DNA from: an uncultured delta proteobacterium
GTDB taxonomy: Bacteria > Desulfobacterota > Desulfobulbia > Desulfobulbales > Desulfocapsaceae
Direction of reading: 5' to 3'
Assembly: GCA_963709755.1 (NCBI GenBank)
Contig: CAVPXO010000012.1
Coordinates: 213,952-277,951 of the forward strand
DNA: 64,000 nucleotides
Made by a program: the position numbers and the translations under genes. This document shows, piece by piece, positions 5,523 through 64,000 of this stretch; within the stretch, counting starts at the first letter, position 1, and each line of letters starts with the position of its first letter. Below the pieces are notes generated by a model. The model did no database searches. It was given only the letters and a program-made list of their open reading frames with translations, and was not told the DNA's origin.

Positions 5523-5594
5523 ACACTTGTCTCACTGACCCCGTTCAATACAACCTCAGGATATACTGAAAAGAATGGGATTATCTATAACCAT

Positions 5595-5636
5595 AAAAAA
5601 AGAAACCGGATCACCCTCATGGGTAATCCGGTCTCT
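5595..5636 (-). terminator. Intrinsic terminator after yajC
   Basis: AGAAACCGGATCACCC-TCAT-GGGTAATCCGGTCTCT hairpin preceded by an A-run on the plus strand. Confidence 0.75.
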
Positions 5637-5680
5637 TCGTCTGTTTCCACAACCTGAGGATTTCAGCAGCCTTTGATGCC

Positions 5681-6046
5681 TCAGCCACCAGAGCTTTTTG
5701 CGTCTTTTTTATCCAGTACGGCTCCACCATCCTTACTTAAAGAACCGCCGATCGCATCACGGGAAACCTTTACGGAAACATCTTTCGCAATTTCAAGAGT
5801 TATAACCGTGTCATTCAATGCAGTGATGACGCCGTGAAGGCCACCTTTGGTCATAACCTTCTGACCTTTTTTCAAGTCGTTCAGGAAAGCCTGATGTTGT
5901 TTAGCCTGTTTCTGCTGTGGTCTGATCAGCAAAAAGTAAAAGACAACAAAAATAAGAACCAGTGGGATAAATGAGGCTATCCCGCCAGCGCCGAAACCAT
6001 TACCGGCACCTGCGGCAGGGGCAGCCGCATAAGCAATTCCTGTCAT
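5681..6046 (-). CDS. yajC: Preprotein translocase subunit YajC
   Basis: FYFLLIRPQQK..LKKGQKVMTKGGLHG; lies directly downstream of tgt. Confidence 0.92.
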   Translation of the reverse strand: MTGIAYAAAPAAGAGNGFGAGGIASFIPLVLIFVVFYFLLIRPQQKQAKQHQAFLNDLKKGQKVMTKGGLHGVITALNDTVITLEIAKDVSVKVSRDAIGGSLSKDGGAVLDKKDAKSSGG

Positions 6047-6139
6047 AAAAAAACCTCCATAAAAGTTACGGGAATATGTAATAAATTGTTCTTCAGAACA
6101 TTTTTTACATAAAAATTTACAAAACTGACACCATGGTAA

Positions 6140-9288
<3,149 letters not shown>

Positions 9289-9506
9289 AATGACAATAGA
9301 ATAAATAAACTTAAGGCTATGCCCTCAAAGGAGCGTTTTTTCATATGCGACTGGAATTTACAGTCTCTGCGGTTGTAAAGGAAGGCAAGGGTTTAATCTC
9401 TTTTCTTTTCTACTATTTTTCTGCATACTAAAAAAAGAGAATAAAGAAAACCTGTTCAAGCTCGATTCAACAGTCCAGACTACAACTTCAACGAGTAGAA
9501 ATCACA

Positions 9507-10871: not shown

Positions 10872-10906
10872 TGCCTTACCGAACAAAATACCTTGGGGGT
10901 AATTTG

Positions 10907-11992
10907 TTACTTCTCCCCGGATGTTATAGCCATAGTGCGGATTTCCCTTTCCCTTTCGGCAATGTCATCTACCAGCCGAAATTGTCTATCGGCTCGCAGG
11001 AGGTTCTCACCTTCCTGTTCTACTTTAAAATAATGGTTGCCACGCAGGTGATCGGTAAAAAAGCGCACCCCCAGCTCAAAACATATAAGCAGCACTCCAT
11101 CAAAGATATAATTGCGCTGTTCTTTCGACAGCAGCTCTTCAGGTTCGGCAAAATAGCCGTCAAGGAGCGCCTGGCAGAAAACCATATCAAACTTGATCGG
11201 CCGAATCCTCCCCCCTGACTCCCCCGCCTTGTTGCAACAGGAACGCAGGCAGTCCCCCAGATCATAGTGCACCAGCCCCATGGCCACGGTATCAAGATCA
11301 AGCAGACCAAGGACTTCTCCCTTATCACCAAAGAGAAAATTGTCTACCTTGGGATCACCGTGGATTGGCTGAAGAGTTAGGATTCCGGCAGACTTTGCAT
11401 TCTCAAGAGTCGTCGCCCGCTGCCGGTAACGGTCAATAGCTTCAATACAATTTTGGATTTCCCTGCTTGCTGCAGTGTTCATCCTGTGCATCACCCGGTC
11501 ATAATCTTCAAGATATCGGGGCAGGTTATGAAAGCCCGGAAGAGGGTCAAGTAACCCTTGCACATCAAGATCACTCACAAATCGGTGAAAGTCGGCCAGT
11601 GATTTTCCGACTCGGAAAGCCTGTCTGGGGTTGGCCAGGACCTTGCGACTCTCATGGGGCAGATAGCTCTGTCCACGCCAGAAGTTACCTTTACTATCAA
11701 GGTAAAAGAGACGCTTGTCCAAGGTTAATACCGGTACAGCGACCTGCAAAGAAGACTGCGCCCAATCCTTTTTGAGAGCCACATGATTGGCTATTTTTTG
11801 AAAATTCTCGATGACCCGTAGAGGTTCAGGGAAGACATCTTTATTTATCCTCTGCAGAACAAAAGAACCGGAGGTCGATCGAACCAGAAAGGTATCGTTA
11901 ATATTGCCGGCACCCAGAGGCGCTACTGTACATGTGGTTGGATTGCTGCAGAATGCAGCAAGAACGTCCAGGGGAAAAGCTTCACCTGCCAT
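10907..11992 (-). CDS. Aminoglycoside phosphotransferase-fold kinase (N-acetylhexosamine 1-kinase / MdsC-like)
   Basis: LGAGNINDTF, LQRIN, HGDPKVDNFLF and LLDLDT motifs; start at MAGEAF (11992) preferred. Confidence 0.75.
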   Translation of the reverse strand: MAGEAFPLDVLAAFCSNPTTCTVAPLGAGNINDTFLVRSTSGSFVLQRINKDVFPEPLRVIENFQKIANHVALKKDWAQSSLQVAVPVLTLDKRLFYLDSKGNFWRGQSYLPHESRKVLANPRQAFRVGKSLADFHRFVSDLDVQGLLDPLPGFHNLPRYLEDYDRVMHRMNTAASREIQNCIEAIDRYRQRATTLENAKSAGILTLQPIHGDPKVDNFLFGDKGEVLGLLDLDTVAMGLVHYDLGDCLRSCCNKAGESGGRIRPIKFDMVFCQALLDGYFAEPEELLSKEQRNYIFDGVLLICFELGVRFFTDHLRGNHYFKVEQEGENLLRADRQFRLVDDIAEREREIRTMAITSGEK

Positions 11993-13013
11993 TGGAACTC
12001 CAGCCTTTCCACTCCTGCCTGGCAAAACGTAGCGCCCCGATAAGTGCCGCATCTTTTCTCAGTATCAGATTGACAGGAATATCCTTCATAAAATCGGACA
12101 TCAATCCTTTAGCATGAAAATTTTGCAGAAAACCGTCAAATGATACCAGCCCCGCTACTCTCGGCAGGATGCCTCCTCCAAGATAGATACCTCCCTTTGC
12201 ATAAAGCTTAAGCGCCAGATTTCCAGCTTCGCTGCCAAGAATCGACAGAAAGAGATCCATCACACGTCGACATAAAGGGCAGGGCTGAGCGTCAACCGAA
12301 CCAATTGCACCAATGGCACCACCTATGATGATTGGGATCGTATCTTTTGCTTTATGCATAGCCTCAACTATCCAGGCAGATTCACGGAGGCGATGATGCT
12401 CCCGAATAAAATCATAAAGGCAGGCCAGACCCGGCCCGGCAATCAATGCTTCATAACTGACAGGTTGCATTTTTTTCTGCATCCAGGCAAGAAGAGCCAG
12501 CTGTTCTTCATTGACCGGGGCAAAATCTGTGTGTCCGCCTTCCGAACCACGCGCAAAAACCTGCCCACCGAACTCAACCAGCAACCCCTCACCAAGGCCG
12601 GTTCCCGGTGCAATGACACCACGCACCTCTCCTCCAGGATTTTCACCCGCCTGTATTTCCAGAAAGTCAGAAGGGTTAAGAACGGTCAATGAATTACATA
12701 CAGCCGTCAGGTCATTAATGAGGAATGTCCGCTGAAAACCGAATTTTTTTTCAAGCAGGCGACAGTCAATCTCCCAAGGCAGGTTCGTCAATTTTGCCCT
12801 GTCACCTGATACCACTCCTGCCAGTGCCAGACAGGCAAGCTGCGGAACCTGATCCAGTTCAGCCAGAAAATCCTCTAAGATTTCGTTAATGCTGAAGAAT
12901 TCAGCATTAGTATATCTTTTTTTCAAGAGCGGTCTATTGTCCGTACCGTGCGATTGAAAAATCGCCAGCAAGCTCTTAGTACCTCCAATATCAGCTGCAA
13001 ATAGAGTTGCCAT
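11982..13013 (-). CDS. glk: Glucokinase (bacterial Glk family)
   Basis: ADIGGTKS, LTNLPW, LINDL, APGTGLGEG, SEGGHTDFAP, GGIYLGGGILP. Confidence 0.9.
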   Translation of the reverse strand: MATLFAADIGGTKSLLAIFQSHGTDNRPLLKKRYTNAEFFSINEILEDFLAELDQVPQLACLALAGVVSGDRAKLTNLPWEIDCRLLEKKFGFQRTFLINDLTAVCNSLTVLNPSDFLEIQAGENPGGEVRGVIAPGTGLGEGLLVEFGGQVFARGSEGGHTDFAPVNEEQLALLAWMQKKMQPVSYEALIAGPGLACLYDFIREHHRLRESAWIVEAMHKAKDTIPIIIGGAIGAIGSVDAQPCPLCRRVMDLFLSILGSEAGNLALKLYAKGGIYLGGGILPRVAGLVSFDGFLQNFHAKGLMSDFMKDIPVNLILRKDAALIGALRFARQEWKGWSSNGR

Positions 13014-49018: not shown

Positions 49019-49034
49019 CGGCATCTTTCTTGCA
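49019..49034 (+). promoter_or_regulatory. Sigma-54 promoter of the nifV-like gene
   Basis: CGGCAT-CTTTC-TTGCA with correct GG-N10-GC spacing, 28 bp upstream of the ATG at 49063. Confidence 0.7.
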
Positions 49035-49062
49035 TCTTTCAGCATCACAGCGAGGAATACAG

Positions 49063-50202
49063 ATGACCCACAATTACAATATAATAGACACAACCCTTCG
49101 AGAGGGCGAACAAACACCCGGCCTGCTTTTTTCCCTGCCTGAGAAAAAACGTATCCTCGACGGTCTGGTCATGATCGGCGTAACTGAGGCTGAGCTTGGA
49201 ATCTCTTCCAGGTTTCATTCCTGTTCAGGTCCGCTCATCAACTACTGCAGAAAGAATCATTCGAATCTGAAACTGTCTCTCTGGAGCCGCTGCAGGAAAG
49301 AAGATATCATCCACGCCGTAAAACTCGGTCCTGACATCCTTTCACTCTCCGTGCCGGTTTCTGATATTCACCTGCAGGACCGATTGCACAAAGATCGTCT
49401 CTGGGCGCAAAAAACAATGGAGACAAGTATTGATTTTGCCAGGCAGGAAGGGCTGACGGTATCCATCGGATTTGAGGATGCAACGCGAAGTGATCCTGAA
49501 TTTTTAATAAAAATGGCAAAGGCTGCGGAGCAACATGGCGCAGCAAGAATTCGAATCGCCGACACTGTGGGCATAGCCTCCCCTGCTCAATTAGCAGGTC
49601 TCGTTACTACCTTGAAACAGGCCATAAATCATTGCCGGCTTGCAGTCCACACCCATAACGATTTTGGCATGGCCACAGCCAATGCCATAGCAGCCCTTGA
49701 AGCCGGGGCTTCATCGGTCGATGCTGTCGTTTTGGGCTTAGGTGAACGGACCGGCTGCGCCCGACTCGAGGAGATTGTCGGCTACCTCAGTCTGGCTAAG
49801 GGAATAACTGCGTTGAAGGCAGAGTACCTCAAACCGCTGGCACTTTATGTGGCTGGAATAACAGGAAGGAGCATCGCAGGCAACCGTCCGGTTATCGGCG
49901 ACGATATATTTACCTGCGAAACCGGCCTGCACCTGCAGGGACTTCAGAACAAGCCGCAAACTTATGAGCCATATAATCCTGAGAGGGTAAGGGCCAGGAG
50001 AAAGCTTCTTTTTGGTTCCAAAAGTGGCCGACGGGCAATTCTCCAGCGCATGAACCAGGTGGACAGCTCCTTCTCCGGAGAACTCACCGACCAGGCGATC
50101 CAATCAGTCAGGATGGAAGCAACCCGGTTACGACGTCCTCTCAGTGATTCGGAACTTATTCATCTTCTGACAGATCCTCCAGCTCTGTTTGGCCCTGACT
50201 GA
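49063..50202 (+). CDS. nifV: Homocitrate synthase (NifV-like, LeuA superfamily)
   Basis: DTTLREGEQTPG, EDATRSD, ADTVG, HTHNDFGMATAN, GLGERTG, FTCETGLH; no LeuA regulatory domain. Confidence 0.78.
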   Translation: MTHNYNIIDTTLREGEQTPGLLFSLPEKKRILDGLVMIGVTEAELGISSRFHSCSGPLINYCRKNHSNLKLSLWSRCRKEDIIHAVKLGPDILSLSVPVSDIHLQDRLHKDRLWAQKTMETSIDFARQEGLTVSIGFEDATRSDPEFLIKMAKAAEQHGAARIRIADTVGIASPAQLAGLVTTLKQAINHCRLAVHTHNDFGMATANAIAALEAGASSVDAVVLGLGERTGCARLEEIVGYLSLAKGITALKAEYLKPLALYVAGITGRSIAGNRPVIGDDIFTCETGLHLQGLQNKPQTYEPYNPERVRARRKLLFGSKSGRRAILQRMNQVDSSFSGELTDQAIQSVRMEATRLRRPLSDSELIHLLTDPPALFGPD

Positions 50203-50689: not shown

Positions 50690-51823
50690 ATGTTATGGAT
50701 TGAACGGCAGCGCGCTTTTCTGGATTTCACCCTTTCCTCCTTGTGGCGGCGAAAGACAAGAAATCTCTCACTCCTTTTTGTCTATGCGCTCGTTACCTTT
50801 CTTCTTTCCTCAGTGATCTTCTTTACCCATGCATTGCGGAAGGAAGCGGTGAAAGTTCTGGAAAATAGCCCGGAAATGATCGTTCAGCGCACCGTAAACG
50901 GCAGGCATTCCCTCATCCCTACAAGTTACGCAGAGAAAATCAAACAGATTCGTGGGACATCCTCAGTAAGACCGAGACTTTGGGGTTATTACTCTCACCC
51001 TGTATCCCTGGCAAACTATACCATTATGGTTCCGGAAAAATTTTCTCGGCCAGACGGCACTGTTGAAACTGGTGCAGGAGTATTGAGGACCTGGGGGCCA
51101 CTAAATGATGGAAAATTATATTTTAGAACCTATGACGGAAAGGTGATTGATCTCACGCCGATCAATACGATGGGAGAAGATACCGACCTTGTATCGTCAG
51201 ACCTGATCCTCATGTCTGAATCTACGTTTAGAAAAATTTCTGGTGTTCCGGAGGGCTACGCGACCGATCTCAGCGTCAACATTCGCAATAATCAGGAATC
51301 CGGAACCATCACAATGAAGATTGTCAAAGATCTCCCGGACACAAGGCCGATTCTGAAGGAGGACATCATCAGGACCTATGATTCTCTTTTTGACTGGCGC
51401 GGAGGATACGTTATCGTCCTTCTTTGGGGAGCTGCTCTTGCTTTCTTTATTTTCGCCTGGGACAGGGCAACGGGGCTTAGCGCTGAAGAGAAAACGGAGA
51501 TCGGTATCCTGAAAGGCATTGGCTGGGACACCTCGGACGTGCTGATGATGAAGTTCTGGGAAGGCGTGGTTATTTCAGTCTCAGCCTTTTTACTGGGAGT
51601 GATCTCAGCCTATATTCACATATATATCACTTCTGCGACCCTTTTTGAACATGCACTGAAGGGCTGGTCGATACTCTACCCGAAATTCACACTCAGTCCC
51701 TCCATAGATCCCTACCAATTGGCGATTCTCTTTTTTCTGACGGTAGTCCCTTACACTTTGTTGACCATTGTTGCCACGTGGAAAGTTGCTGTCACCGATC
51801 CGGATCTGGTAATGAGACATTGA
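50690..51823 (+). CDS. FtsX/LolE-like ABC transporter permease
   Basis: N-terminal TM, periplasmic domain, EKTEIGILKGIGW motif, three C-terminal TM segments. Confidence 0.85.
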   Translation: MLWIERQRAFLDFTLSSLWRRKTRNLSLLFVYALVTFLLSSVIFFTHALRKEAVKVLENSPEMIVQRTVNGRHSLIPTSYAEKIKQIRGTSSVRPRLWGYYSHPVSLANYTIMVPEKFSRPDGTVETGAGVLRTWGPLNDGKLYFRTYDGKVIDLTPINTMGEDTDLVSSDLILMSESTFRKISGVPEGYATDLSVNIRNNQESGTITMKIVKDLPDTRPILKEDIIRTYDSLFDWRGGYVIVLLWGAALAFFIFAWDRATGLSAEEKTEIGILKGIGWDTSDVLMMKFWEGVVISVSAFLLGVISAYIHIYITSATLFEHALKGWSILYPKFTLSPSIDPYQLAILFFLTVVPYTLLTIVATWKVAVTDPDLVMRH

Positions 51824-51824
51824 T

Positions 51825-52496
51825 ATGATTCAACTATCGGCAATAACCAAGACCTTTAATTCAGGAAAGGCTAATGAGTTTCAGGCCCTAAAGGAGATCG
51901 ATCTTGAGATTACCCTGAATGAGGTGACTGTGTTCGTCGGCCCCAGCGGGTCAGGGAAGACCACCCTTTTAAGTATTCTCGGATGCATGTCCAGGCCCAC
52001 TTCCGGAAGAATTTTGATGAATGGGCGAGAGATCACGAGTCTTCCTGAACGCTTTGCCGCTGGGATCAGGAGGGAGACTTTTGGCTTCATCTTTCAGAAT
52101 TTTAACTTGATCAAAGGAATTTCAGTATTGGAGAATACCATGTTTCCCGCCTACCCAACGGGGAAAAAATATCGGCTGGTCAGAGATCGGGCGGTATCCC
52201 TTCTGGAAAAGCTCGGAATTGGTTCCAAAGTTCAGGAGCAGGTGGAGCACCTCTCAGGTGGTGAACAGCAACGGGTCGCCATTGCCAGGGCCTTGATCAA
52301 CAGCCCCTCTATCATAATCGCCGATGAACCTACAGCCCATCTGGACACTGAACTCGCCCGGCAGCTTTTGGAAATTTTTTCCGGTATCAAGAACGAAGGA
52401 AATACCATCCTGATCGCCAGCCATGATTCCCTGGTCTTTGAATCCTCAATTACCGATCGTGTGGTCTCAATGCGGGATGGTGGGGTTGTGGAGTAA
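51825..52496 (+). CDS. LolD/FtsE-like ABC transporter ATP-binding protein
   Basis: GPSGSGKTT, FIFQNFNL, LSGGEQQR, ADEPTAHLD, SHD. Confidence 0.92.
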   Translation: MIQLSAITKTFNSGKANEFQALKEIDLEITLNEVTVFVGPSGSGKTTLLSILGCMSRPTSGRILMNGREITSLPERFAAGIRRETFGFIFQNFNLIKGISVLENTMFPAYPTGKKYRLVRDRAVSLLEKLGIGSKVQEQVEHLSGGEQQRVAIARALINSPSIIIADEPTAHLDTELARQLLEIFSGIKNEGNTILIASHDSLVFESSITDRVVSMRDGGVVE

Positions 52497-52532
52497 AATC
52501 AATTATACCGAATCCTAAAACGGAAACATAAT

Positions 52533-53531
52533 ATGTTGTTTAATCCCGCCATCATAGCCCTGATCTCCGGTTCCCTGCTGGTCACGGCCTTCGCATTTTA
52601 CGCCCTGCTCACCGCTCTTAGAATCTTGAAGCATTGGAATATCCAAAGCGGGAGCGAACTGCAACTGCTTCTGGAAAGAAAGACATATCTCATATCCACT
52701 GTTTGCACTTACGTGCTGGTGTTTGAACTTTTTTCCCTTATCCTGTTTATTGCTACCGCAGAACATATGCACGACTTGTTCGTTGGTGCAATGTGTGCGG
52801 CGGGATCTCTCAATATCAACGACTATGGCTACGTCACACTGGTTGTTAAAATCCTTACATTCGTTATCTGCGGTGTGTGGATGATCATCAATCACACGGA
52901 CAATCAGGCTCATGATTACCCGCTGATCCGTCCCAAGTATAAGCTTCTTATCCTTTTGACATTAATGATCGGCCTGGACACCATCCTTCAGATTAAATAT
53001 TTTATGGGGCTCAGGGCCGATGTGATTACATCCTGCTGCGGGATTATTTTCGGCGAGGAAAGCCAAGGTATAACGGGGAGCATGGCCGCCCTTGCCCCCT
53101 CTACCACCATGATCATTTTTTATGTAGTTCTTATCCTGACCATGAGGGTCGGGATCGGTTTCATTGTAACCGGCAGAGGCGCTGCAGTGTTTGGTCTTGC
53201 AGCGGGAGTGGCAACGGTTGTTTCTTTAGCTGCCGTGATCTCCTTCATCTCTGTTTACTATTATGAACTGCCTACCCATCACTGCCCCTTCTGCTTGCTT
53301 CAGAAGGATTATCACTACATCGGATACCCTCTTTACCTGTCTCTTCTTATGGCGGGCACTACCGGCATGGGGACAGGCGTGATTGAAAGATTGAAGGGCC
53401 CGCAGTCCCTTTCGACACTGATTCCTGCCTTACAGAGACGTTTCTGCCTTTTGTCCATGGGAGGATTTCTTGTTTTTACTTTGATCGCCAGCTACCCGAT
53501 ATTTTTCGCGGATTTTATACTGGACTCTTAG
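52533..53531 (+). CDS. Uncharacterised polytopic membrane protein with Cys/His motifs
   Basis: About 8 hydrophobic segments; GAMCAAG, ITSCCG and YYELPTHHCPFCLL motifs. Confidence 0.7.
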   Translation: MLFNPAIIALISGSLLVTAFAFYALLTALRILKHWNIQSGSELQLLLERKTYLISTVCTYVLVFELFSLILFIATAEHMHDLFVGAMCAAGSLNINDYGYVTLVVKILTFVICGVWMIINHTDNQAHDYPLIRPKYKLLILLTLMIGLDTILQIKYFMGLRADVITSCCGIIFGEESQGITGSMAALAPSTTMIIFYVVLILTMRVGIGFIVTGRGAAVFGLAAGVATVVSLAAVISFISVYYYELPTHHCPFCLLQKDYHYIGYPLYLSLLMAGTTGMGTGVIERLKGPQSLSTLIPALQRRFCLLSMGGFLVFTLIASYPIFFADFILDS

Positions 53532-53924: not shown

Positions 53925-54419
53925 TCAATCCAGTTTGCTGATCACCGCGGAAGTGATTTCCTCAAACCGGAGAATCCTTTTTCCTTTGTGATCCTTTAAT
54001 ACATTCCGTGCATCCTCTTCCGTGGCCAAAGGTATAAGTTCGTAGCCCATAGGACCAAAAACATTACTCCCGAGGACAAAAAATGCCTTCCTGGCGTCGA
54101 TCATTGTCATCTCATAGTAATCCATGACATAGATGGCGGCGATATCTTTCTTATTCTGGCCGGGCCGGTATTTGGCAGGGTTGAAGTAATACTTGAACAG
54201 GTCCTTTACGCCGTCAAAAAACTCGACTGAACCGTCTGAAAAAATAATTTCCGCTGTCCAGTCAGGATATTTATACACGAACATCCCACACACCGGACAT
54301 TTGTCTGTTTTGGAAGGCTCCACCATTCCTTTCTGCTGCGCAAGTCCCGTATCCGATATCAACAAGACAGCAGCCAGGACGACGGCCCGAAACAGATTTG
54401 CTCTATTCACCCGTATCAT
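53925..54419 (-). CDS. NosL-family copper chaperone-like protein
   Basis: Signal peptide, DKCPVCGMF, FFDGVKD, IDARKAFFVLGS..GPMG; start at 54419 has a GGAGG RBS. Confidence 0.82.
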   Translation of the reverse strand: MIRVNRANLFRAVVLAAVLLISDTGLAQQKGMVEPSKTDKCPVCGMFVYKYPDWTAEIIFSDGSVEFFDGVKDLFKYYFNPAKYRPGQNKKDIAAIYVMDYYEMTMIDARKAFFVLGSNVFGPMGYELIPLATEEDARNVLKDHKGKRILRFEEITSAVISKLD

Positions 54420-54518
54420 GCAGTACCAACCTCCAGTTTCGAAACGAGGGTTGATCATAAAAATCTGCGACCAACCCGTCATGGCAAAAATGTTTTACTT
54501 ACCCTTCTCCACTTCCTT

Positions 54519-55049
54519 TCAATTTTTTTTCATCTGGTGTTTCATCTTCCGCTTCTCTCGAATCATCTTGGTGTCCTGGTACATATCATCGTATGCGGCC
54601 TCCATGACCTGATCGAATCCTGCCAGAGCACCGCCGTTTTCCTTAATATATGCTTCTGCAGCTGGTTTTGTGCCAAAGGCCCATTTAGCCCGCTTGGTCA
54701 TCACACCCATTTTGTTGCCACCGATAACCCAGTATGCCGTCTCTGCATCTATCAACTGGCTGGTGTCATAGTCCCCTACCTCAATTTGCACTGGTGTTTT
54801 ATCGATATTCACAGCCAGATCGACGGCTGCACAATGGATAGAGCAGGTTCCAAGAGTGGAACCATCATCGAACGCTATAGAGACGCGGGAGTGGGAAAAT
54901 TTTTGCCGGTCCATTCCACAATAGGGGCACGAAGGATGTGCCGCAATATCGTCCTGTGCAAAAGCCTGACTACTGCACATCATTCCGAAAAAAGTTGCAC
55001 CCCCGGTTAAAAAACTAACAGACAGAGCAAAAATTACCAGTCCTTTCAT
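54519..55049 (-). CDS. NosL-family copper chaperone-like protein
   Basis: Signal peptide ending AFA, CPYCGM, CSIHC, LIDAETAYWVIGG..GVM, Met/His-rich tail. Confidence 0.8.
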   Translation of the reverse strand: MKGLVIFALSVSFLTGGATFFGMMCSSQAFAQDDIAAHPSCPYCGMDRQKFSHSRVSIAFDDGSTLGTCSIHCAAVDLAVNIDKTPVQIEVGDYDTSQLIDAETAYWVIGGNKMGVMTKRAKWAFGTKPAAEAYIKENGGALAGFDQVMEAAYDDMYQDTKMIREKRKMKHQMKKN

Positions 55050-55136: not shown

Positions 55137-58100
55137 TCACTGATTTGAAGGATGCAGTGATCCTTTGCTCTCTATTTTTGTCAGCTCAATGTTTTTTTCC
55201 GCATTTCCTTTCATCCTGTTTTCCCGGATGCCGCAATACAACACCGGCACTATCAACATGGTCACAATCTCCAGGCTCATGCCTCCCAAGGTCGGGATGG
55301 CCATGGGCACCATAATATCCGATCCACTTCCGGTGGACGTCAGGATCGGGAGCAGGGCCAGCACTGTGGTGGCAGTAGTCATCAAACAGGGCCGCACCCG
55401 CCGCAGGCAGGCCTCGATAGTAGCATGGCGAATCTCCTGGACCGTGGCTGTCTTCCTTTCAGCAAAGGCACCATTTAGGTACGTTGCCATGACCACCCCG
55501 TCATCCGAGGCAATACCGAAAAGGGCCAGGAATCCCACCCATACAGCCACGCTCAAATTAATCGGGTGGACCTGAAACACATCCCGCATTGAGGTTCCAA
55601 AGACACTGAAATCAAGAAACCAGGGCTGACCATACAACCAGATCATGATAAAGCCGCCGGCCCAGGCAACGGCCACTCCGGAAAAGACCAGGACACTGGT
55701 TGAAACGGATTTAAATTGCAGATAGAGTATGATGAAGATAATCAAAAGAGCCAGTGGCAGGATTAAACTCAGCTTTTTGTCAGCCCGCACCTGGTTTACA
55801 TAATTCCCGGTAAAAGTAAAGCTGACGCCGGCCGGTAGCTGCAGCTCGCCGTTGTCGATTTTCTCCAGGAGATAGTCCCGTGCCTCCTCAACCACGTTGG
55901 TTTCAGCCCTGTCTGCTTTTTTGTCGAAGAGCACATAGCCGACAAGAAATGTATTCTCACTTTTTATCATCTGGGGACCGGCCACAGACCGCAGGTCGGC
56001 CAACTGCACCAGGGGTATCTGGGTACCATTCGGGGCAGGTACCATCACTTTGCCTATGTTATCGAGGTTATCCCGTAGTTCGCGCATGTATCTGACGCGC
56101 ACAGGGTATCGTTCCCGCCCCTCAACGGTGGTAGTGATCTGTTTGCCGCCGATCGCAATTTCGATAACATCCTGTACCTGCTGCAAGTCAATTCCGTACT
56201 GGGCGATGGCACGCCGGTCGATGTCGATCTCCAGATACGGCTTGCTGACAATCTGATCGGCAATTACCGACAGGGGATCGACCGAGGGAACTTCCCGGAT
56301 ATATTTTTCGATGCGACGCGTCACCTCTTCGATGGTTTGCAAATCAGGACCGTAGACCTTAATCCCCATATTTGCCCGGATACCGCTTTGCAGCATCACC
56401 ATACGCGCCGAGATGGGCTGAAGCTTTGGTGCCACCGTTGTCCCCGGAATGGATGCCCCCTTGACGATTTCTCGCCAGATGTCATCCGGTTGCACGATAC
56501 CTGCCCAGGCTTTGCGGCCTTGATTGATGTCGGTATCCAAGGCCGGACGCCACAATCGGAAGGGGCAGCCCTGGTCGTCGGGGATCAGTTTGTTGTCACT
56601 GTCTCGTTCAAACTTTCCACGAACATGGTACGGTTTGCCATCCGGGGCAGGGAGGGGGTAGCCTCGCTCATCACGGAAAAAATCAAGCTCGTCCGGGGTG
56701 AAACGAAACTGTACGGGTCGCCCTTTGGCATTCAGTCGAAACTCGGGTGCGTAATTAATGAGGGTCTCGATCATAGAGATAGGAGCCGGATCAAGTGGAC
56801 TTTCAACCCTTCCCAGTTTGCCCACCGCCGATTCCACCTCAGGTATCGCCTGGATCGCGCGATCCTGCCGCTGCAGGATGTCAAGCACCTCACCGATGGA
56901 GGCATGGGGCATGGTCACCGGCATATACAGGTAAGCACCCTCATCCAGCGGCGGCATAAATTCCTTGCCTATGCCGGGAAATTTTTCGGTCAGATAGATA
57001 AACGGCGTGGAGTTGGTAACCAGCCGGGGCAGCCAGCCGAAAATGGTGCCGTACCCTTGCCAGATCATACCGCCAAACAGCACCGCCAACAGCGGCAGGG
57101 CCAGAAAAAGAGCTTTGTGCTCCAGGCACCACCCCAATATCCTTGGATAAAAGCGATGAAACAATCCAAAGGCGGCGATAACCCCGCCAATGAGCAGCCC
57201 AACAAAAATAAAATTATGCACGATCCCCTTCTCAGCTCCCAGGGGCTGCCAGGATCGGGTCAAAACCAATGTCACCGCCAGCACAATGAGGCCGCTGGTC
57301 AACAGTCGCACCCTGCGTGCGGACTCCGCTGGAAGCCGCAGTATCAGAAGGTTACAGCCGCCAATGACGGCTACGAAGAGGCCCACCTGCCAATCCAACA
57401 CGAACGCCAGCACTCCCCCAAGATAAATCAATCCTTCGTAAAAAATCCAACCGTGTTGTTGGCGGCCGGCTTTGCGGTTGAACAGGGCATGGGCCAGGGG
57501 TGGTATAACACACAGGGCGATGATCAGTGAGGCCAGCAGGGTAAAGGTTTTGGTAAACGCCAGCGGTCTGAAGAGTTTTCCTTCGGCCGCCACCATGGTA
57601 AATACCGGCAGGAAACTGACGATGGTGGTGGATACAGCCGTCAGGACAGCCCCGCCCACCTCGCTTGCCGCCCGCACAACAACAGCCGTGCGATCTTCCT
57701 GTGGTGTGGCCTGGGCCAGACGGCGCATAATATTTTCGGTCAGGATGATGCCCATGTCGACAATGGTCCCGATGGCAATGGCGATCCCCGAAAGGGCAAC
57801 GATGTTGGCATCCACTCCGAAGATCTTCATGGCGATAAAACAGAGCAGTACCGCGAGCGGCAGCAGCCCTGAAATTATAATCGAGCTCCCCAGGTGCGCC
57901 ATCATCACGATTACCACAATGATGGTGACCAGCATTTCCTTGGAGAGGGCAGAACTGAGTGTGTTGAGGGTTTCCTGGATCAGATCGGTACGGTCATAGA
58001 AGGGAACGATTTTTACCTGGCTGAGCGTGCCGTCGGCCAGGGTTCTTTTGGGCAGCCCCAGCGCTATTTCATCAATTTTCTTTTTAACCCGGCTGATTAC

Positions 58101-59087
58101 CTCCAGCGGGTTCTCGCCGTAGCGCACAACCACAACTCCGCCGACCGCTTCCATGCCGCCTTTGTCCAGAGCGCCCCGCCGTGAGGCAGGCCCCATGGTC
58201 ACATTGGCCACATCCCCTACCAGCACGGGAGTTGCCCCTTCCAGCTTGATAGAGGAATCGCGAATATTGTCGAGAGATTTGATAAACCCCAGACCTCGGA
58301 TAACGTATTCGACCTTATTGATCTCAATCGTGCGCGCCCCTACGTCAACATTGGCCCGACGCACGGCGCTCACCACTTGGGCCAGACTGATGTTGTGATA
58401 CCTTAAGAGGTCCGGGTCTACATCGATCTGGTATTCCGCCACAAACCCACCGACCGAGCCCACTTCGCTGACGCCCGGCACCGACATCAGAGCATAGCGC
58501 ACATACCAGTCCTGGATACTGCGTAACTCGTGCAAGTCCCAGCCACCTGCAGGATTTCCGTCGGAGCCGATACCTTCCAGGGTGTACCAGAACACCTGGC
58601 CCAGGGCCGTGGCATCCGGTCCCAGGGTTGGCTTGACCCCTTCGGGTAACTCGCGGGCCGGCAAACTGTTGAGATTCTCCAGCACCCGTGTCCGGGCCCA
58701 GTAAAAATCGACGCCATCCTCGAAGATGACGTACACCAGGGAAAACCCGAACATCGAGTAACTGCGGATGGTCTTCACCCCGGGGACGCCCAGCAGGGAT
58801 GCCGAGAGCGGATAGGTGATCTGGTCTTCGATGTCCTGGGGAGAACGGCCGGTCCATTCAGAAAAGACGATCTGCTGGTTTTCGCCAATGTCGGGGATGG
58901 CATCCACCGGCACCGGATCGCGCCACATCCCGCCGAGCTGCCAGTCAAACGGGGCCACTACCAGTCCCCAGCCAATCAGGATAACGACTGCCAGAAAAAC
59001 GATCATCCGGTTTAGCATACAGAAGCGGATGATGGTTCCGAGCCAGGAGGATGTGGAGTGAGGTTGCGGATTAAAATCTTCAGTCAT
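55137..59087 (-). CDS. cusA: CusA/CzcA family heavy-metal RND transporter, long form
   Basis: VDAIPDIGENQ, QITYPL, GATPV..VVVRYGENP, GIAIAIGTIVD, EFMPPLDEG, RPCLMT, MAIPTLGG. Confidence 0.9.
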   Translation of the reverse strand: MTEDFNPQPHSTSSWLGTIIRFCMLNRMIVFLAVVILIGWGLVVAPFDWQLGGMWRDPVPVDAIPDIGENQQIVFSEWTGRSPQDIEDQITYPLSASLLGVPGVKTIRSYSMFGFSLVYVIFEDGVDFYWARTRVLENLNSLPARELPEGVKPTLGPDATALGQVFWYTLEGIGSDGNPAGGWDLHELRSIQDWYVRYALMSVPGVSEVGSVGGFVAEYQIDVDPDLLRYHNISLAQVVSAVRRANVDVGARTIEINKVEYVIRGLGFIKSLDNIRDSSIKLEGATPVLVGDVANVTMGPASRRGALDKGGMEAVGGVVVVRYGENPLEVISRVKKKIDEIALGLPKRTLADGTLSQVKIVPFYDRTDLIQETLNTLSSALSKEMLVTIIVVIVMMAHLGSSIIISGLLPLAVLLCFIAMKIFGVDANIVALSGIAIAIGTIVDMGIILTENIMRRLAQATPQEDRTAVVVRAASEVGGAVLTAVSTTIVSFLPVFTMVAAEGKLFRPLAFTKTFTLLASLIIALCVIPPLAHALFNRKAGRQQHGWIFYEGLIYLGGVLAFVLDWQVGLFVAVIGGCNLLILRLPAESARRVRLLTSGLIVLAVTLVLTRSWQPLGAEKGIVHNFIFVGLLIGGVIAAFGLFHRFYPRILGWCLEHKALFLALPLLAVLFGGMIWQGYGTIFGWLPRLVTNSTPFIYLTEKFPGIGKEFMPPLDEGAYLYMPVTMPHASIGEVLDILQRQDRAIQAIPEVESAVGKLGRVESPLDPAPISMIETLINYAPEFRLNAKGRPVQFRFTPDELDFFRDERGYPLPAPDGKPYHVRGKFERDSDNKLIPDDQGCPFRLWRPALDTDINQGRKAWAGIVQPDDIWREIVKGASIPGTTVAPKLQPISARMVMLQSGIRANMGIKVYGPDLQTIEEVTRRIEKYIREVPSVDPLSVIADQIVSKPYLEIDIDRRAIAQYGIDLQQVQDVIEIAIGGKQITTTVEGRERYPVRVRYMRELRDNLDNIGKVMVPAPNGTQIPLVQLADLRSVAGPQMIKSENTFLVGYVLFDKKADRAETNVVEEARDYLLEKIDNGELQLPAGVSFTFTGNYVNQVRADKKLSLILPLALLIIFIILYLQFKSVSTSVLVFSGVAVAWAGGFIMIWLYGQPWFLDFSVFGTSMRDVFQVHPINLSVAVWVGFLALFGIASDDGVVMATYLNGAFAERKTATVQEIRHATIEACLRRVRPCLMTTATTVLALLPILTSTGSGSDIMVPMAIPTLGGMSLEIVTMLIVPVLYCGIRENRMKGNAEKNIELTKIESKGSLHPSNQ

Positions 59088-59149: not shown

Positions 59150-60759
59150 TCACTGTTTCGTCTGCTGCGGCGCCATTTCCATATCCATCTTCATGCCTGA
59201 GATTTCACTTTCAAGGTCCTGCATCGCTTCACCGCCTACATGAGTCATCATGCTGGTCCCGGCCAGGATCTGGATTGCGCTATCAATCTTAAAATTCCCG
59301 TTAACCACAACCTTTTCGCCTTCCCGCAACCCTTCCCGCACCACGTAATACCCCTTGGCCCTGGGACCCAGAAGCACTACCCGGCCTTCATACGTCCCGG
59401 GTTCGCCCGCCACCTCCACATAGACTACTGCCCGTTTACCGGTGATCATCGGAGCGGTCTCAGGTATCGTCAGCGTCTTGTTCTGCTCCGCGCTCTGTCT
59501 GCTGTCCACCCTGTATCCCGGTATCAAGGAAGCATGCATCGTACCGCGGACCAGCATCCCCGGCTTTAATTTTCCCTGATGAGCGGAACAGAGAACCCCT
59601 ACCTTGAATGTATGCGTTTTATCATCAAAATCAGGATCAAGGTATATCACTTCACCTGTGAAGATCTCGCCCGGATAGGCATCTGAGCGAAATTCGGCTT
59701 TCTGGCCAAGCTTGATCCAGGGAAAATCTGATTCGAAGGCGTCAAACATCGCCCACACATATCGAGGGTCAGCGATGGTGAAGACAGAATCCCCGGTGTT
59801 CAGGTACATGCTTTTAAACGCATCCTGTTTCTGAACAATGCCGGGAATTGGTGTCAATTCCGTTCGGATACCGGTTGGCCATCCCCGGCTGATGATCCCG
59901 TCGACCTCGGCTTCAGTAAGCCCCAGCGATCCTATTTCACGTCGGATTCTGACGACCTCGGCCGTGATTGCCTGTTCCTCTTCCGCAGCTTATCTCCTGT
60001 TCCTTGTCAGCTTTGGCCGGCTGCACCACAGAAGGCCCCGGTCGGCCCCGCCTCACAGGGGGTGGACCGCTGGGCTTCCACATCCACGGCTGGACCCACT
60101 GCTTGAAACGTTGTCCTACTGCCGGCCGGTTTGCAACAAAGCCGGGAAGTTTTTCGAGGGTCGCAAACAGCTCCTGCTCCAGAAAATAAAGATCTACCGA
60201 ATACAGATCAAACAGGGCGTCGCCGGTTTTAACAGTCTCTCCTGCACGTTTGACGTAGATTTCATCGATCACCCCCGGCGCAAACGCAGTCACCTTGTAC
60301 TGGTAGGCGGGGTCATACTCAACCCTGCCGAACAGCCGGACCTCCGCGGAAACCGCCCTTTTTTCCACCGTTGCGACCTGAATTCCGGCGGCCTTGACAC
60401 CCTCTTCGGTAAGATGCAGCCTGGACGAACCTTCTTCATGCCGGTGTCCCTGAGCCTCCGCCGCCACCAGATCCATGCCGCACACCGGGCACTTGCCTGG
60501 CTGTTCCATGGGAGGCACGCAATTCATCGGGCAGACGTAGACTGTTGTCCTCTTTTGGCATCGCAGGTGGAGGCTGGGTACCCTGATCCTCATTGCCTGG
60601 TTGCATAATGCCGGACATGGGATGTTCGTCCGCTACCGGATGACTCGCCTCCGAATTATCGCCGTGCATGGTATAACCGATGCTGATGCCGACCATTACT
60701 GCCGCCAGAATCATAAGCAGAATTTTTTTTGAACCCAGATATTTCTTTATTTTTTCCAT
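59150..60759 (-). CDS. cusB: CusB-like RND periplasmic adaptor with heavy-metal-binding domain; two frameshifts
   Basis: Pieces 60759-~60570 (TM), ~60570-59990 (CPMNC..PGKCPVCGMDL) and ~59990-59150 (IAD...GEK VVVNGNFKIDS, Met-rich tail) join with indels near 60555-60590 and ~59990. Confidence 0.8.
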
Positions 60760-60870
60760 GGCCTCTAGTGCATCAATGAATTGCGGGAAGGGAATCAAAC
60801 ATCAGGCATCCACTACGATGAAAAAGCCCCTGCCGGCATCCTTGGCTTTTTGCCTGTCAAGATGCCGCAT

Positions 60871-61139: not shown

Positions 61140-61170
61140 AAAATAACGGGGAAGGGATTATTCCCTCCCC
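61140..61170 (-). terminator. Terminator after the multicopper oxidase gene
   Basis: GGGGAGGGA-ATAA-TCCCTTCCCC followed by GTTATTTTT on the minus strand; second hairpin AAGGGAGAG/CTCTCCCTT at 61091-61120. Confidence 0.55.
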
Positions 61171-61192
61171 CATCAAACCACTTCCTCCATAG

Positions 61193-64000
61193 TTAGTTTC
61201 GTGTCACCGTCACCGGTGTCGGCGCCGGAGTCCAGGCACTGGAGCCAAGGATATTATTGGCCCTGACCTGCATGTAGACAGAAGTTCCCGCGGTACCACC
61301 CACATTGATCTGCTGAACTCGAGGTGACACCGTTAACCTGAGTTGCCGGAGCCATTGTCGAGCTGTTTGACCAGAGGATGCTGTAGCTGGACGCACCAGG
61401 CACGGCGAGTCCAGTTCAGACCCGCTGTCCTTTGTCCGCCGCGTGTGCCATTGGCCGCAGTAACGTCAGACGGAGCTGCCGGAAGGGCCATGGCTATGGA
61501 CGCCGAAGTTGCGAAGGCCGACAGCCCCCCGCCGTTTACCGCCGCTACCCGGTAAATATAGCTGTTACCAAGCACCACGGTTGGGTCAGAAAAGCTCACA
61601 CTCCCGGTATTGTTGCGAGCCGGGGCTGTGCCGATCTGGGTGAAGGTCGCACCGCTGTCCGAGGGAACGTTCGATGACAAACCCGTTCTCGTTGGTGGCG
61701 TTGTCCTGCCAGGTCAGGTTGACCCGCGGCCCTGCCGCTATAATGGCAGTCAGGGAGGTCGGCGCTGCTGGAAGTTGGCCGTTGCCGCTGAGTACGGAGC
61801 TGGACACAGACTGCGCGCTCACACTCATAAACTCGCCTCCGTAGCCCACTGTGTTGACCGCTGCCACACGATAGCCGTAGACTGTGTTGCCAATACCACT
61901 GTCGGTCAGGGTAAGGGCGTTACCCGCTGTGTTCGGCACGGCGAGCAGCTGCAGGACAGGTGTGCCGACATTCGTCCAGTTAATACTGTCCGCGGACCGC
62001 TGCAGCTGGAAAGACGTTTCTGTCAGGGAGTTGTCGGTGAAGGACACATTTACCCTGTTGCCTTTTCCTGCAGTAAGTGTTCCGATTATCGGCTCTTTCG
62101 GCGGCAACGCCACGGAAACAGGCCGCATCATATCCATCTCCTCATGGCTGAGGATATGGCAGTGCCACACGTACTCCAAACCATAGTTGACGAGCTGGTT
62201 TTCGATCGGAGCGGTAGGATTACCGGCGGCATCGACGTTATTGAAGCCCATTAATGACCCAAGCGGCATCATCGGATGCAGCGGCCGAACGCTGTTGGGC
62301 AGCTCCCATGGCAGATCAGGAATGATTGGCCTGAGGGCCACGATCGTGTCCTCCAGCGGGCTCACCCGCAGCGTATCTTTCCAGCCGAGTTCGGTTGGAT
62401 CCGGCGGGCTGATGATATTATCCCAGGTTACCCGGTTGAGCACCTGCACATCGTAGAGATGCCAGTGGAGCGGATGAGTGTCCACACCATTATGGGTGAT
62501 CTTCCAGATCTGTGTCCCGTCCGCCGAGCTGATCGGGCTGATAGGTTTCATAGTCGTGATATTATTCTTTGGCAGATTGGTAGCATCGAACATCTCCGTC
62601 GGTGGGTTGACAAACGGGTAAAGAATGATGTTCTGAGCCGCCGGTGTGGCCGGCACGGCCTCAACACCGATATTTGCCGACATTCTGCCGAACTCGTCGA
62701 AAGCTGAGGCGTTCATCTCGTCATGAATTGCCTTCGGTTCGATCATAATCTCCAGCTTGCCTGCCGGATCCAGCAGGGTGTTAAAGCCGAACAGGGTTCC
62801 GCCCTGGTTGTTGATGCGGAGATGGCCGTCACAAACGGTGCTGGTGCTGCCGCCGTTGCAGTCGCCACTTGCGGAAAAGTTCGTGCCGTATGCCGAGTTG
62901 TACTCTGCCTGCCCAACAATGATCGGATGCTGTGCGGATTCGAATACTCCAGAACCGTCCGCCTTGTGTTTGAATGCATTCTTGAAGTAGCGCTCAGGTT
63001 GAAAGCAGATGCCGCGGTGTTCCCGCAACCTTCACCTGCATGACCGTGCGGGTGTTGGGGCCGTAGCCGGGCAGGATTGAAGGTGCACCTACCGGGGTCA
63101 GATCCGGGGCGCCGGTATAGTAATCATAGCTAGCAACCCTTGCCGGAAATGCAGCAGGGGCGTCATTATAAAGAATAAGCGTCTGGCCGGCAAACTTCGA
63201 GAAGTCGACAATTACGTCGAACCGCTCGGCGGGTGCCACCAGCAGCGAATGTTGATCGACGTTGCCGACGTTAAAGACGGTCGGGTCGATGATCCATGTG
63301 GTCGGCTGGGCCGGAACAACGACCGGGGCCGGCAGGAAGCCGCCCTCGGAACCGATAACGATCCAGTCAGGACCGGCCGGGCTGACGCTGGTGTCCGGCG
63401 TCGGGAAAATATTCGGGTCAAGCTGGGCGGCTGCCAGCTCAGCGGGATTAAGTGCTACCTCAGTGGGTCCGATCGCCACATCGGTTTCACTATTCGGATC
63501 AGCCACATACCAGGAGAAGTTGAAGAACCGGTCGTTGGCCGCGTTCAGGATGCGCAGTCGATAAGCCTTGGGCTCCACCGTGGTGGTGGGGTAGGCCGTG
63601 CCGTTGACGATGGGCGTATCGTTGAACTGCTCCATACCCACGGAGATATTCGGCGTACCGGGGATTTTCTCCGGCTCACAGAAGGGGTCGGTCTCGTATT
63701 GCCAGGTGGTAGGATCGTTGATGTTGCAGGCAGCGCCAATGGTGTCTGCCAACATCTGTATGTCGGATCATATTATAATACGGATTGGCAATCGGTCCGT
63801 ACGGTGGTGTTGCCGGTGGCCAGAACCACGGTCCGTACATCCAGCGGCCGAAGGGGCTCATGCCCGTTGCGTCGCCAGGATTCTGGGCCGGCATATAGAC
63901 ATGATGATACCAGAAATTGCCCATGCCACCCCAGCTTGCGGTATCCCAGGTCGGGTCCTGCCAGTCCAGCTGGTCGGTGCCCGGCACAAAGGTCCGGTCT
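61193..64000 (-). CDS. OmpB/MofA-type multicopper oxidase with C-terminal fibronectin type III repeats; 5' end outside the window, several frameshifts
   Basis: DRTFVP, YRLRILNAANDRF, APAERFDVIVDF, HPLHWH and WHCHILSHEEMDM copper motifs; Fn3 patterns W.DN..NE.GF.IERS and Y.YRVAAVN spread over ORFs 63676-63987, 62994-63755, 61586-63028, 61333-61680 and 61193-61396. Confidence 0.82.

Follow-up and report, generated by a model that had tools for sequence, protein, structure and literature searches.

Does the broken gene at the right-hand end of this DNA encode a multicopper oxidase that deals with metal oxides, one that deals with copper, or no working enzyme at all? A preliminary description of the 64,000-nt stretch analysed here (the window) had proposed an OmpB/MofA-like multicopper oxidase with three Fn3 repeats in a presumed sulfate-reducer lineage. 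The lineage was borne out, the host being a dsrAB-bearing relative of Desulfopila. For the gene, our reading, to which we assign a probability of roughly 70%, is that it encodes a Sec-exported, CotA-like oxidase of a giant family, that its ±1 frame breaks are artefactual, and that it has a role in a copper-handling island.

The oxidase gene, its domains and its family

The gene runs past the window edge, and its upstream part was read from the same contig (C12, 325 kb). Its features are as follows.

61193-65998 (window-equivalent; C12:275144-279949), minus strand: giant multicopper oxidase gene, whole, ~1,600 codons, ~4.8 kb
61193-64000, minus strand: in-window C-terminal part of the gene, ~930 codons, with ~6 of the ~16 ±1 indels
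62459-62476, minus strand: HPLHWH, copper motif 3 (HxxHxH), aligning to HPIHLH of CotA
62129-62164, minus strand: HCHILSHEEMDM, copper motif 4 with the type-1 Cys, His and axial Met, aligning to HCHILEHEDYDM of CotA
61775-62101, minus strand: Fn3-like module 1
61486-61774, minus strand: Fn3 module 2, with a frame change near 61657
61196-61485, minus strand: Fn3-like module 3; the frame changes near 61404 and again near 61313, and the stop codon (61193-61195) follows
61144-61175, minus strand: hairpin resembling an intrinsic terminator, with 14 pairs and a following T-run, 18 nt past the oxidase stop

The two C-terminal copper motifs of the preliminary description, including the axial Met, were confirmed on the minus strand. 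Both lie inside a 480-aa ORF (61586-63028), and phmmer paired them with THPIHLHL and YVWHCHILEHEDYDMMRP of the type-1 copper region of Bacillus subtilis CotA (chain 388-470 and 484-512; E 2.5e-10). The N-terminal copper motifs and the signal peptide had been placed beyond the window, which is correct for the window but not for the contig, where both were read. The complete read-through contains LHLHGG (residue 543), FYHDHAW (618), HPLHWH (1175) and HCHILSHEEMDM (1279), which fit the HxHG, HxH, HxxHxH and HCHxxxHxxxxM patterns of three-domain oxidases of the CotA/laccase type, and all four motifs were invariant among 50 aligned homologues, as was the segment H-C-H-I-L-x-H-E-E-M-D-M-M. Moreover, the protein has five Cys pairs, four of which were invariant or at least 90% conserved in the 50-sequence alignment. 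The Pfam models Cu-oxidase_2 (43.3 bits; cut-off 20.4) and Cu-oxidase (24.5 bits; cut-off 21) matched, and Cu-oxidase_3 scored 18.2 bits, under its cut-off of 21.

The start ATG is preceded by a ribosome-binding site (GGAGGAG) and opens a Sec signal peptide, MTKHKIPRWMNSVLMLVLALALAVAIAPAQA, in which no twin-arginine motif was found. No convincing sigma-54 or sigma-70 promoter candidate was found 5' of the gene. The predicted layout is a signal peptide, a series of short 'GSGY' beta-modules spanning ~250 residues, a ~950-residue core, and three Fn3-like modules of ~95 residues each.

The three proposed Fn3 repeats fared differently. Module 2 is upheld by Pfam, with an fn3 score of 31.1 bits in the intact orthologue (cut-off 25) against 14.7 bits in the window copy, and a match to the Fn3-like protein PDB 3MPC was also obtained (E 7.9e-5). 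Module 1 is upheld by homology to module 2, being 38% identical to module 2 of the orthologue in genome G009 (E 2e-10), and its equivalent in an AlphaFold2 homologue model formed a seven-strand beta-sandwich (pLDDT 83-93). Module 3 can be called Fn3-like by its length and pattern only. The model, built for a 1,181-aa homologue with the 50-sequence alignment, was poor as a whole (mean pLDDT 57.7, pTM 0.55) and too poor for fold searches; its confident Fn3-like stretch alone was used, and the domain picture therefore rests on sequence.

The oxidase has more than 6,000 homologues, with cores 66-82% identical across Desulfobacterota, Geobacteraceae, Chloroflexota and Actinomycetota, and homologues were located at 571 genome loci in several phyla. 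Its best solved relative is CotA (E 2.8e-32); CotA and bilirubin oxidase matched far better than CueO, and the predicted protein is a three-cupredoxin-domain, CotA-like oxidase and not a CueO. In a tree built on the trimmed core, it fell within a Desulfocapsaceae clade with a support of 99; in the core it is 87% identical to the intact orthologue of the cultured strain Desulfopila sp. IMCC35006. The same tree held the Geobacteraceae homologues (G. hydrogenophilus, Geobacter sp., Geomonas and C. bremense), which were 57-72% identical over ~860-1,100 residues. Judged by these alignments, the oxidase is a member of a widespread and already recognised giant family of the OmpB/OmpC/MofA type, to which GSU1394, GSU2657 and MofA were matched by description. 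Strict orthology to G. sulfurreducens OmpB/OmpC is doubtful because the 120 top-ranked relatives found with the G. hydrogenophilus protein did not include a G. sulfurreducens entry.

The surrounding island

The genes around the oxidase are as follows.

59150-60798, minus strand: cusB-like RND adaptor, its frame interrupted near 60546 and 59984 by one +1 indel each; intact in the G009 orthologue (535 aa)
55137-59087, minus strand: heavy-metal RND pump of the cusA/czcA family, 1316 aa, intact (TIGR00914, 763.8 bits; cut-off 701.45)
54519-55049 and 53925-54482, minus strand: two NosL-like genes with copper-chaperone-type products
50690-53531, plus strand: genes for an FtsX/MacB-type permease, an ABC ATPase and a membrane protein of 332 aa, in convergent orientation to the nosL genes
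49601-50048, no strand: left copy of a 448-bp direct repeat, in a nifV-like gene; right copy at window-equivalent 66727-67174, 98.7% identical

The two repeat copies bracket an island of ~17 kb. The gene order oxidase-cusB-cusA is kept in two further genomes (G009 and G012), and in Desulfocapsaceae the oxidase heads a conserved oxidase-cusB-cusA module. Since this linkage includes the cultured Desulfopila sp. IMCC35006, it offers a tractable setting for the substrate question of OmpB-type oxidases. Farther afield, a weaker cusBA pair lies 3' of the oxidase in two gammaproteobacterial loci, a CusR/CopR-like regulator adjoins the Geomonas homologue, and at one locus (L018) the full accessory set recurs, the FtsX/MacB-type permease, ABC ATPase and membrane protein genes there adjoining the oxidase. 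No cus genes were found near most family members (Actinomycetota and Chloroflexota).

The island encodes neither an outer-membrane factor (CusC) nor CusF. Neither mofB (FKBP) nor mofC (cytochrome c) was found within ~10 kb on either side of the oxidase, and no SCO1 or type II secretion gene was found nearby; among related loci, a cytochrome gene lies 3' of the oxidase in 5 of 80, and an FKBP gene downstream of it in one (L109). The local context of cusBA, two NosL-like genes and the MacB-type ABC set points to copper handling rather than a metal-oxide role.

Frame breaks: consensus error or decay

Indels of ±1 interrupt the reading frame of the oxidase at about 16 points and that of cusB at two more. 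About six of the frame changes lie in the window part of the oxidase (near 63770-63729, 63016, 62988, 61657, 61404 and 61313), and insertions outnumber deletions by ~13 to 5 over the two genes. We consider these ~18 indels most probably to be consensus errors of long-read metagenome assembly and not biology, because nonsense codons and an excess of substitutions at conserved sites are absent, cusA is intact, the genome is otherwise clean, and similarly broken homologues occur elsewhere. Specifically, the oxidase read-through contained no in-frame stop and deviated at 2 of 371 columns that are at least 97% conserved (family mean 2.0). Its unique substitutions (1.9%) lay within the range of intact close relatives (0.8-4.4%), and its end branch in the tree (0.11) was comparable to those of intact siblings (0.06-0.11). 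The adjacent 3.9-kb cusA had no frame change, and ORFs of at least 250 aa covered a median of 78% per 5-kb bin genome-wide. On two other contigs from one ENA long-read-style series, the homologues contained ~20 and 3 ±1 indels and no stops, and the genes beside them were intact. In addition, at least 26 of the 120 best fragment matches sat on contigs longer than 100 kb.

A near-identical copy was found neither in the fragment search, which returned the gene's own ORF at 100% and a next match at 78%, nor in an exact 35-mer scan of JGI metagenomes, which gave one contig at ~70% identity. The indels are not mostly in homopolymers; some sites lie in short runs, and an error model limited to homopolymers was rejected for this reason. 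Programmed frameshifting or recoding was likewise rejected, since the ~16 sites are of both signs and without a common motif. The scarcity of homopolymer sites and the sparing of cusA despite a similarly high GC content (0.55-0.59) count against the artefact reading.

The alternative, foreseen in the preliminary description, is a true pseudogene, in which this lineage lost the function of the oxidase and of cusB once the island had been acquired, leaving both genes to decay. Confinement of the ~16 + 2 frame changes to ~6 kb (59984-65999) of an otherwise clean assembly would suit it, as would the location of most indels outside long homopolymers and the dispensability of the DNA suggested by an island that has a scattered distribution in the genus (5 of 25 genomes) and is flanked by a partial gene duplicate. 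However, neutral decay that produced ~18 indels should also have added tens of substitutions and some nonsense codons, and neither these nor a long branch were found; apart from the ±1 indels, the gene bears no sign of decay. Bacterial mutation is biased toward deletions, so that the excess of insertions also opposes decay, and the same signature recurs on the two other long-read-style contigs. Taken together, a pseudogene is unlikely. Under the preferred reading of consensus error, long-read metagenome assemblies repeatedly introduce ±1 indels into a highly conserved, GC-rich and horizontally spread gene, so automated annotation will under-count it or record it as a pseudogene.

Proposed role and comparison with known systems

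In multicopper oxidases, the type-1 copper takes single electrons, which pass over a Cys-His bridge to a trinuclear cluster where O2 is reduced to water. Here, the type-1 copper would accept single electrons from an external reductant and the trinuclear cluster, reached by the Cys-His bridge, would reduce O2 to water. Sec rather than Tat export and the five Cys pairs imply that copper is inserted outside the cytoplasm, which fits the downstream cusB-cusA pump, the two NosL-like proteins and the MacB-type ABC set. The role would be an O2-dependent oxidation of a reduced metal ion at the cell envelope or surface, with the oxidase acting within a copper-handling island that was acquired by horizontal transfer. 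Among candidate substrates Cu(I) best fits the context, and we propose it tentatively; Fe(II), Mn(II) or organic reductants could also serve. Two observations argue against a Cu(I)-oxidase role, namely the absence of a Met-rich segment such as that of CueO or PcoA (at most 4 Met per 40 residues) and the scarcity of nearby cus genes among most relatives. The sole known genetics of the family, that of Geobacter OmpB/OmpC, implicates Fe(III)-oxide reduction (PMC5566968, PMC3495685).

A functional analogue of OmpB/OmpC would be a surface multicopper protein that aids contact with, or reduction of, insoluble Fe(III)/Mn(IV) oxides independently of copper detoxification. The likeness proposed in the preliminary description holds for the family shared with the Geobacteraceae giant oxidases (57-72% identity over the ~900-residue core) and for the Fn3 tail, which is described for OmpB (PMC5566968). 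It does not extend to the putative Fe(III)-binding EXXE motif of OmpB (Mehta 2006, as quoted in PMC5566968), which is absent from the read-through and from the four Geobacteraceae homologues checked, or to adjacent genes for a mofC-like cytochrome, for SCO1 or for type II secretion. The conserved partners here are cusBA instead, and how a copper oxidase aids oxide reduction is unexplained even in Geobacter; we regard such an analogue as improbable. A MofA-like enzyme that oxidises Mn(II) or Fe(II) seems less probable still, given a locus without mofB or mofC and an anaerobic sulfate reducer as host. Some CotA enzymes oxidise Mn(II), and CotA is the nearest solved relative, which speaks for this kind of enzyme. 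MofA and OmpB are also treated as homologous, but the activity of MofA itself was never demonstrated biochemically (PMC5566968). The adjoining cusBA pair would agree with an ordinary periplasmic cuprous oxidase of the CueO/PcoA type. Nevertheless, the NCBIfam CueO model gave 59.6 bits where its cut-off is 525, export is by a Sec rather than a Tat signal, the Met-rich insert is missing, and the protein is three times as large as CueO and matched far better by CotA and bilirubin oxidase. Membership of the CueO family, which the preliminary description had allowed for, is thus refuted and an enzyme of this type is extremely improbable; a CueO-like function falls under the copper-handling reading that we prefer.

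The oxidase, the enlarged CusA paired with CusB and lacking an outer-membrane factor, the two NosL-like proteins, a Cys-rich membrane protein and the MacB-type ABC set might even form a dedicated extracytoplasmic copper-supply and -removal system of Desulfocapsaceae, a speculative proposal to which we give little weight. If it held, a copper system would load a Sec-exported surface oxidase, with which a strict anaerobe could consume O2 or oxidise Cu(I) where oxic and anoxic zones meet, and OmpB-type oxidases would have an undescribed maturation pathway analogous to NosDFYL for N2O reductase. Otherwise, the oxidase adds a further example to a very large family that is recognised and biochemically unexplained.

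Among known systems, OmpB (GSU1394) and OmpC (GSU2657) of G. sulfurreducens, set alongside by description, are likewise giant (>1,300 aa), exported multicopper proteins with C-terminal Fn3 domains, and Citrifermentans bremense carries two homologue copies. Unlike the Geobacter homologues, the present oxidase has an extra N-terminal array of GSGY modules (~250 residues), and unlike OmpB/OmpC it lacks EXXE, heads a cusBA module, and has no gene for SCO1, type II secretion or a mofC-like cytochrome nearby. MofA of Leptothrix discophora (~1,660 aa), a putative Mn(II) oxidase of the mofABC operon and also compared by description, is of similar size class, secreted, and carries four multicopper motifs, whereas the present locus is without the mofB and mofC of that operon. 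MofA has been placed in one family with OmpB (PMC5566968). The closest solved structures are those of the B. subtilis CotA laccase (PDB 1GSK) and bilirubin oxidases. The motif 3 and 4 sequences of CotA are nearly identical to those of the oxidase (HPxHxH; WHCHILxHE..DMMRP), but CotA has 513 residues and lacks the N-terminal modules, Fn3 tail and signal peptide, and the cupredoxin domains of the oxidase add ~450 insertion residues. Finally, CueO with CusCFBA and the Pco/Cop islands likewise combine a multicopper oxidase, a heavy-metal RND pump and copper-binding accessory proteins; the present island differs from them in an oxidase that is not of the CueO/PcoA type, in the absence of CusC and CusF, in its enlarged CusA (1316 aa), and in accessory genes that are NosL-like or belong to a MacB-type ABC set.

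Extent, reading frame and domains of the oxidase gene

Contig C12 of the source genome (G000) is 325 kb long and has the window at C12:213952-277951; the DNA past the window end was therefore readable. Overlapping ORF pieces extend on the minus strand from window position 61193 to 65998 (numbering continued along C12). When an intact same-genus orthologue (P0001; 1,636 aa, genome G009) was laid on the DNA by a frameshift-aware dynamic programme, a single oxidase gene of ~1,600 codons, 76% identical to P0001, was obtained. With this guide the frame contained ~16-18 single-base changes, and seven further guide proteins placed frame changes at the same sites (12-17 per guide). GGAGGAG stands before the ATG. 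The N-terminal sequence MTKHKIPRWMNSVLMLVLALALAVAIAPAQA/AS is a Sec signal of the classical type and contains neither a twin arginine nor a lipobox.

Features of the oxidase gene and its neighbourhood, in transcription order
61193-65998, minus strand: giant multicopper oxidase, first gene, with its own terminator
62459-62476, minus strand: copper motif HPLHWH
62129-62164, minus strand: copper motif HCHILSHEEMDM
3' of the oxidase stop codon: hairpin of 14 pairs with a T-run
after the oxidase, minus strand: cusB, second gene, two indels
55137-59087, minus strand: cusA, third gene, 1,316 aa (TIGR00914, 763.8 bits)
after cusA, minus strand: two NosL-like genes
after the NosL-like genes, minus strand: 122-aa ORF, last of the run
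convergent to this run: MacB/FtsX-type permease, ABC ATPase and 332-aa membrane protein

The preliminary description was right on HPLHWH and HCHILSHEEMDM, which phmmer aligned with THPIHLHL and YVWHCHILEHEDYDMMRP of CotA, segments that hold the CotA type-1 ligands His419, Cys492, His497 and Met502. It was also right that the N-terminal copper motifs lie beyond the window, but their sequence is not missing: both LHLHGG and FYHDHAW were read where C12 continues. All copper-ligand residues were invariant in a family alignment of 50 sequences.

The core is followed by three modules of ~95 residues each, in agreement with the three Fn3 repeats described previously. Module 2 matches Pfam fn3 in the G009 orthologue (31.1 bits), but reaches only 14.7 bits in the G000 copy, which has a frame change inside it. 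Module 1 shares 38% identity with module 2 (E 2e-10); the corresponding region of a homologue, in an AlphaFold model that is poor overall (mean pLDDT 57.7), is a seven-strand sandwich predicted with confidence. Module 3 is probably Fn3-like, judging from length and pattern. Additionally, five or six modules of ~45 residues, ending in G-[SAG]-G-Y-x-x-x-P-x-V and with no Pfam match, occupy read-through residues ~95-345 (~64960-65710) near the N-terminus.

Frame changes in the oxidase and cusB

The indels are limited to window 59984-65999 (~16 in the oxidase and two in cusB), and none was found in the adjoining 3.9-kb cusA. Genome-wide, ORFs of at least 250 aa cover a median of 78% of each 5-kb bin; the assembly is good, and the indel patch is an exception. 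Neutral decay with ~18 indels should, from general mutation spectra, have left some nonsense codons and several times as many substitutions as observed. The oxidase has no in-frame stop; it differs at 2 of 371 columns conserved at ≥97% (family mean 2.0; one of the two adjoins a frame change), at 14 of 530 conserved at ≥90% (12.6) and at 40 of 724 conserved at ≥80% (41.3). Its clade-unique substitutions amount to 1.9%, against 0.8-4.4% in seven intact relatives, and its terminal branch (0.11) is similar to those of its siblings. Apart from the indels, the coding information is untouched, which is not the picture of the true pseudogene that the preliminary description had considered.

The patch comprises ~13 insertions versus ~5 deletions, opposite to the usual bacterial bias towards deletions. 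Moreover, the same signature was found in homologues on two other long-read-style contigs. The first (L109; ENA ERZ25039600:contig_10016, 7464-12271) has ~20 ±1 indels, namely 15 insertions and 5 deletions, and the second (L110; ERZ25039462:contig_4365, a 1.47-Mb contig, ~4700-9427) has three; both are free of stops and have intact neighbours. Based on the absence of stops, the background level of substitutions, the insertion excess and this recurrence, we consider consensus or polishing errors the probable origin of the indels in the oxidase and cusB (roughly 80%). That reading leaves the sparing of cusA unexplained, and the indels fall in short homopolymers only in part. Contigs longer than 100 kb carry at least 26 of the best 120 family fragments (264-840 aa), and together with L109 and L110 these look like a recurrent consensus artefact of the family. 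Speculatively, such errors might arise when reads of homologues from other community members cross-map onto this unusually conserved gene. No near-identical copy of the oxidase was present in the collections searched.

The copper island and its surroundings

The order oxidase-cusB-cusA is shared with G009 and G012, another Desulfocapsaceae genome. The CusA-family pump, at 1,316 aa versus ~1,050 for the TIGR00914 model, is similarly large in both (1,310 and 1,300 aa). At a related locus (L018) the entire accessory set is present in a different order, and in two loci of gammaproteobacteria the oxidase is followed by a more distant cusBA pair. No outer-membrane factor gene was found in the island, and mofB, mofC and SCO1 genes are absent from the G000 locus.

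Among 80 loci, the commonest neighbours were histidine kinases (35/80) and response regulators (30/80), the Geomonas regulator looking CusR/CopR-like to our eye; a di-haem cytochrome gene lies 3' of the oxidase in 5/80. At L109 (3545-7315 and 12433-13122), a MASE3 histidine kinase, a LuxR-type regulator and a single-domain receiver precede the oxidase, a sigma-54 activator lies further upstream, and an FKBP isomerase (MofB-like) follows, an arrangement unlike that of Desulfocapsaceae, where cusBA accompanies the oxidase.

The ~17-kb island is flanked by a 448-bp direct repeat (98.7% identical; 49601-50048 and 66727-67174, the latter C12:280678-281125), an internal piece of a nifV-like HMGL gene. 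The intact gene copy lies at 49030-50202, and the second repeat copy, just upstream of the oxidase, is a truncated 155-aa ORF. The repeat could be an insertion/duplication scar or reflect strain heterogeneity in the assembly. What looks like a gene remnant, a 132-aa ORF (L003:13534-13932, C12:285533-285931) that retains just the C-terminal lid and the HTH_8 of a sigma-54 activator, adjoins two Fic-domain genes about 5.5 kb upstream of the oxidase.

The oxidase gene is patchy within the genus (5/25 genomes), and the GC of cusA-cusB-oxidase is 0.55-0.59 versus 0.46 for the genome, which indicates horizontal acquisition.

Proposed role and relation to known oxidases

Five Cys pairs are present, four of them invariant or at least 90% conserved in the family alignment. 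Together with the Sec signal, they imply that folding and copper loading take place outside the cytoplasm, which provides a rationale for the copper-trafficking neighbours. On these grounds, an O2-dependent metal-ion oxidase within a copper-handling island is the role we favour. Cu(I) is the first candidate substrate, a weak suggestion because the protein has no Met-rich segment such as known cuprous oxidases possess. The host carries dsrAB (576.5 bits; cut-off 392.85), so its earlier labelling as a sulfate-reducer lineage is sound. A second multicopper oxidase of ordinary size (Cu-oxidase_2, 75.6 bits) is encoded in a 728-aa open frame at G000:C3:506338-506676.

With the core of P0001 (residues 480-1340) as the query, 6,191 proteins were matched among 8,000 scored candidates. 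The best 120 of these were 66-98% identical (66-82% without the near-identical copy P0002) and mostly labelled merely 'multicopper oxidase domain-containing protein'. In species-representative genomes a relative is encoded at 571 loci, including those of Desulfopila sp. IMCC35006 (identical to G012), Desulforhabdus, Geomonas, Citrifermentans and Geobacter, many Anaerolineae, and actinomycetes such as Streptomyces, Cellulomonas and Kribbella. Actinomycetota are reported to carry OmpB/OmpC-like genes (PMC12227724). Phyla are intermixed in the oxidase tree (16 label changes), and the G000 copy forms a clade (support 99*) with G009, two metagenome proteins and the Desulfopila copy, to which it is 87% identical. 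The by-products of most use from this analysis are the conserved link between oxidase and cusBA, in a lineage that has a cultured representative, and the warning on assembly-shattered oxidase copies.

Among proteins of solved structure, CotA (E 2.8e-32) and bilirubin oxidases match best; CueO, a grouping with which would have told against the preliminary description, is remote. OmpB, OmpC and MofA have been treated as one homologous extracellular-oxidase group with an unproven substrate (PMC5566968, PMC3495685). The OmpB/MofA-like assignment holds in the broad sense: 57-72% identity to giant oxidases of other Geobacteraceae supports membership of the broad family, within which strict orthology to GSU1394, GSU2657 or MofA is at most possible. 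The N-terminal ~45-residue modules of the G000 oxidase are absent from the Geobacter homologues, whose sequences begin near the core. The EXXE motif attributed to OmpB occurs neither in the G000 oxidase nor in the Geobacter homologues checked. The oxidase is an additional representative of a family that is known and very common.
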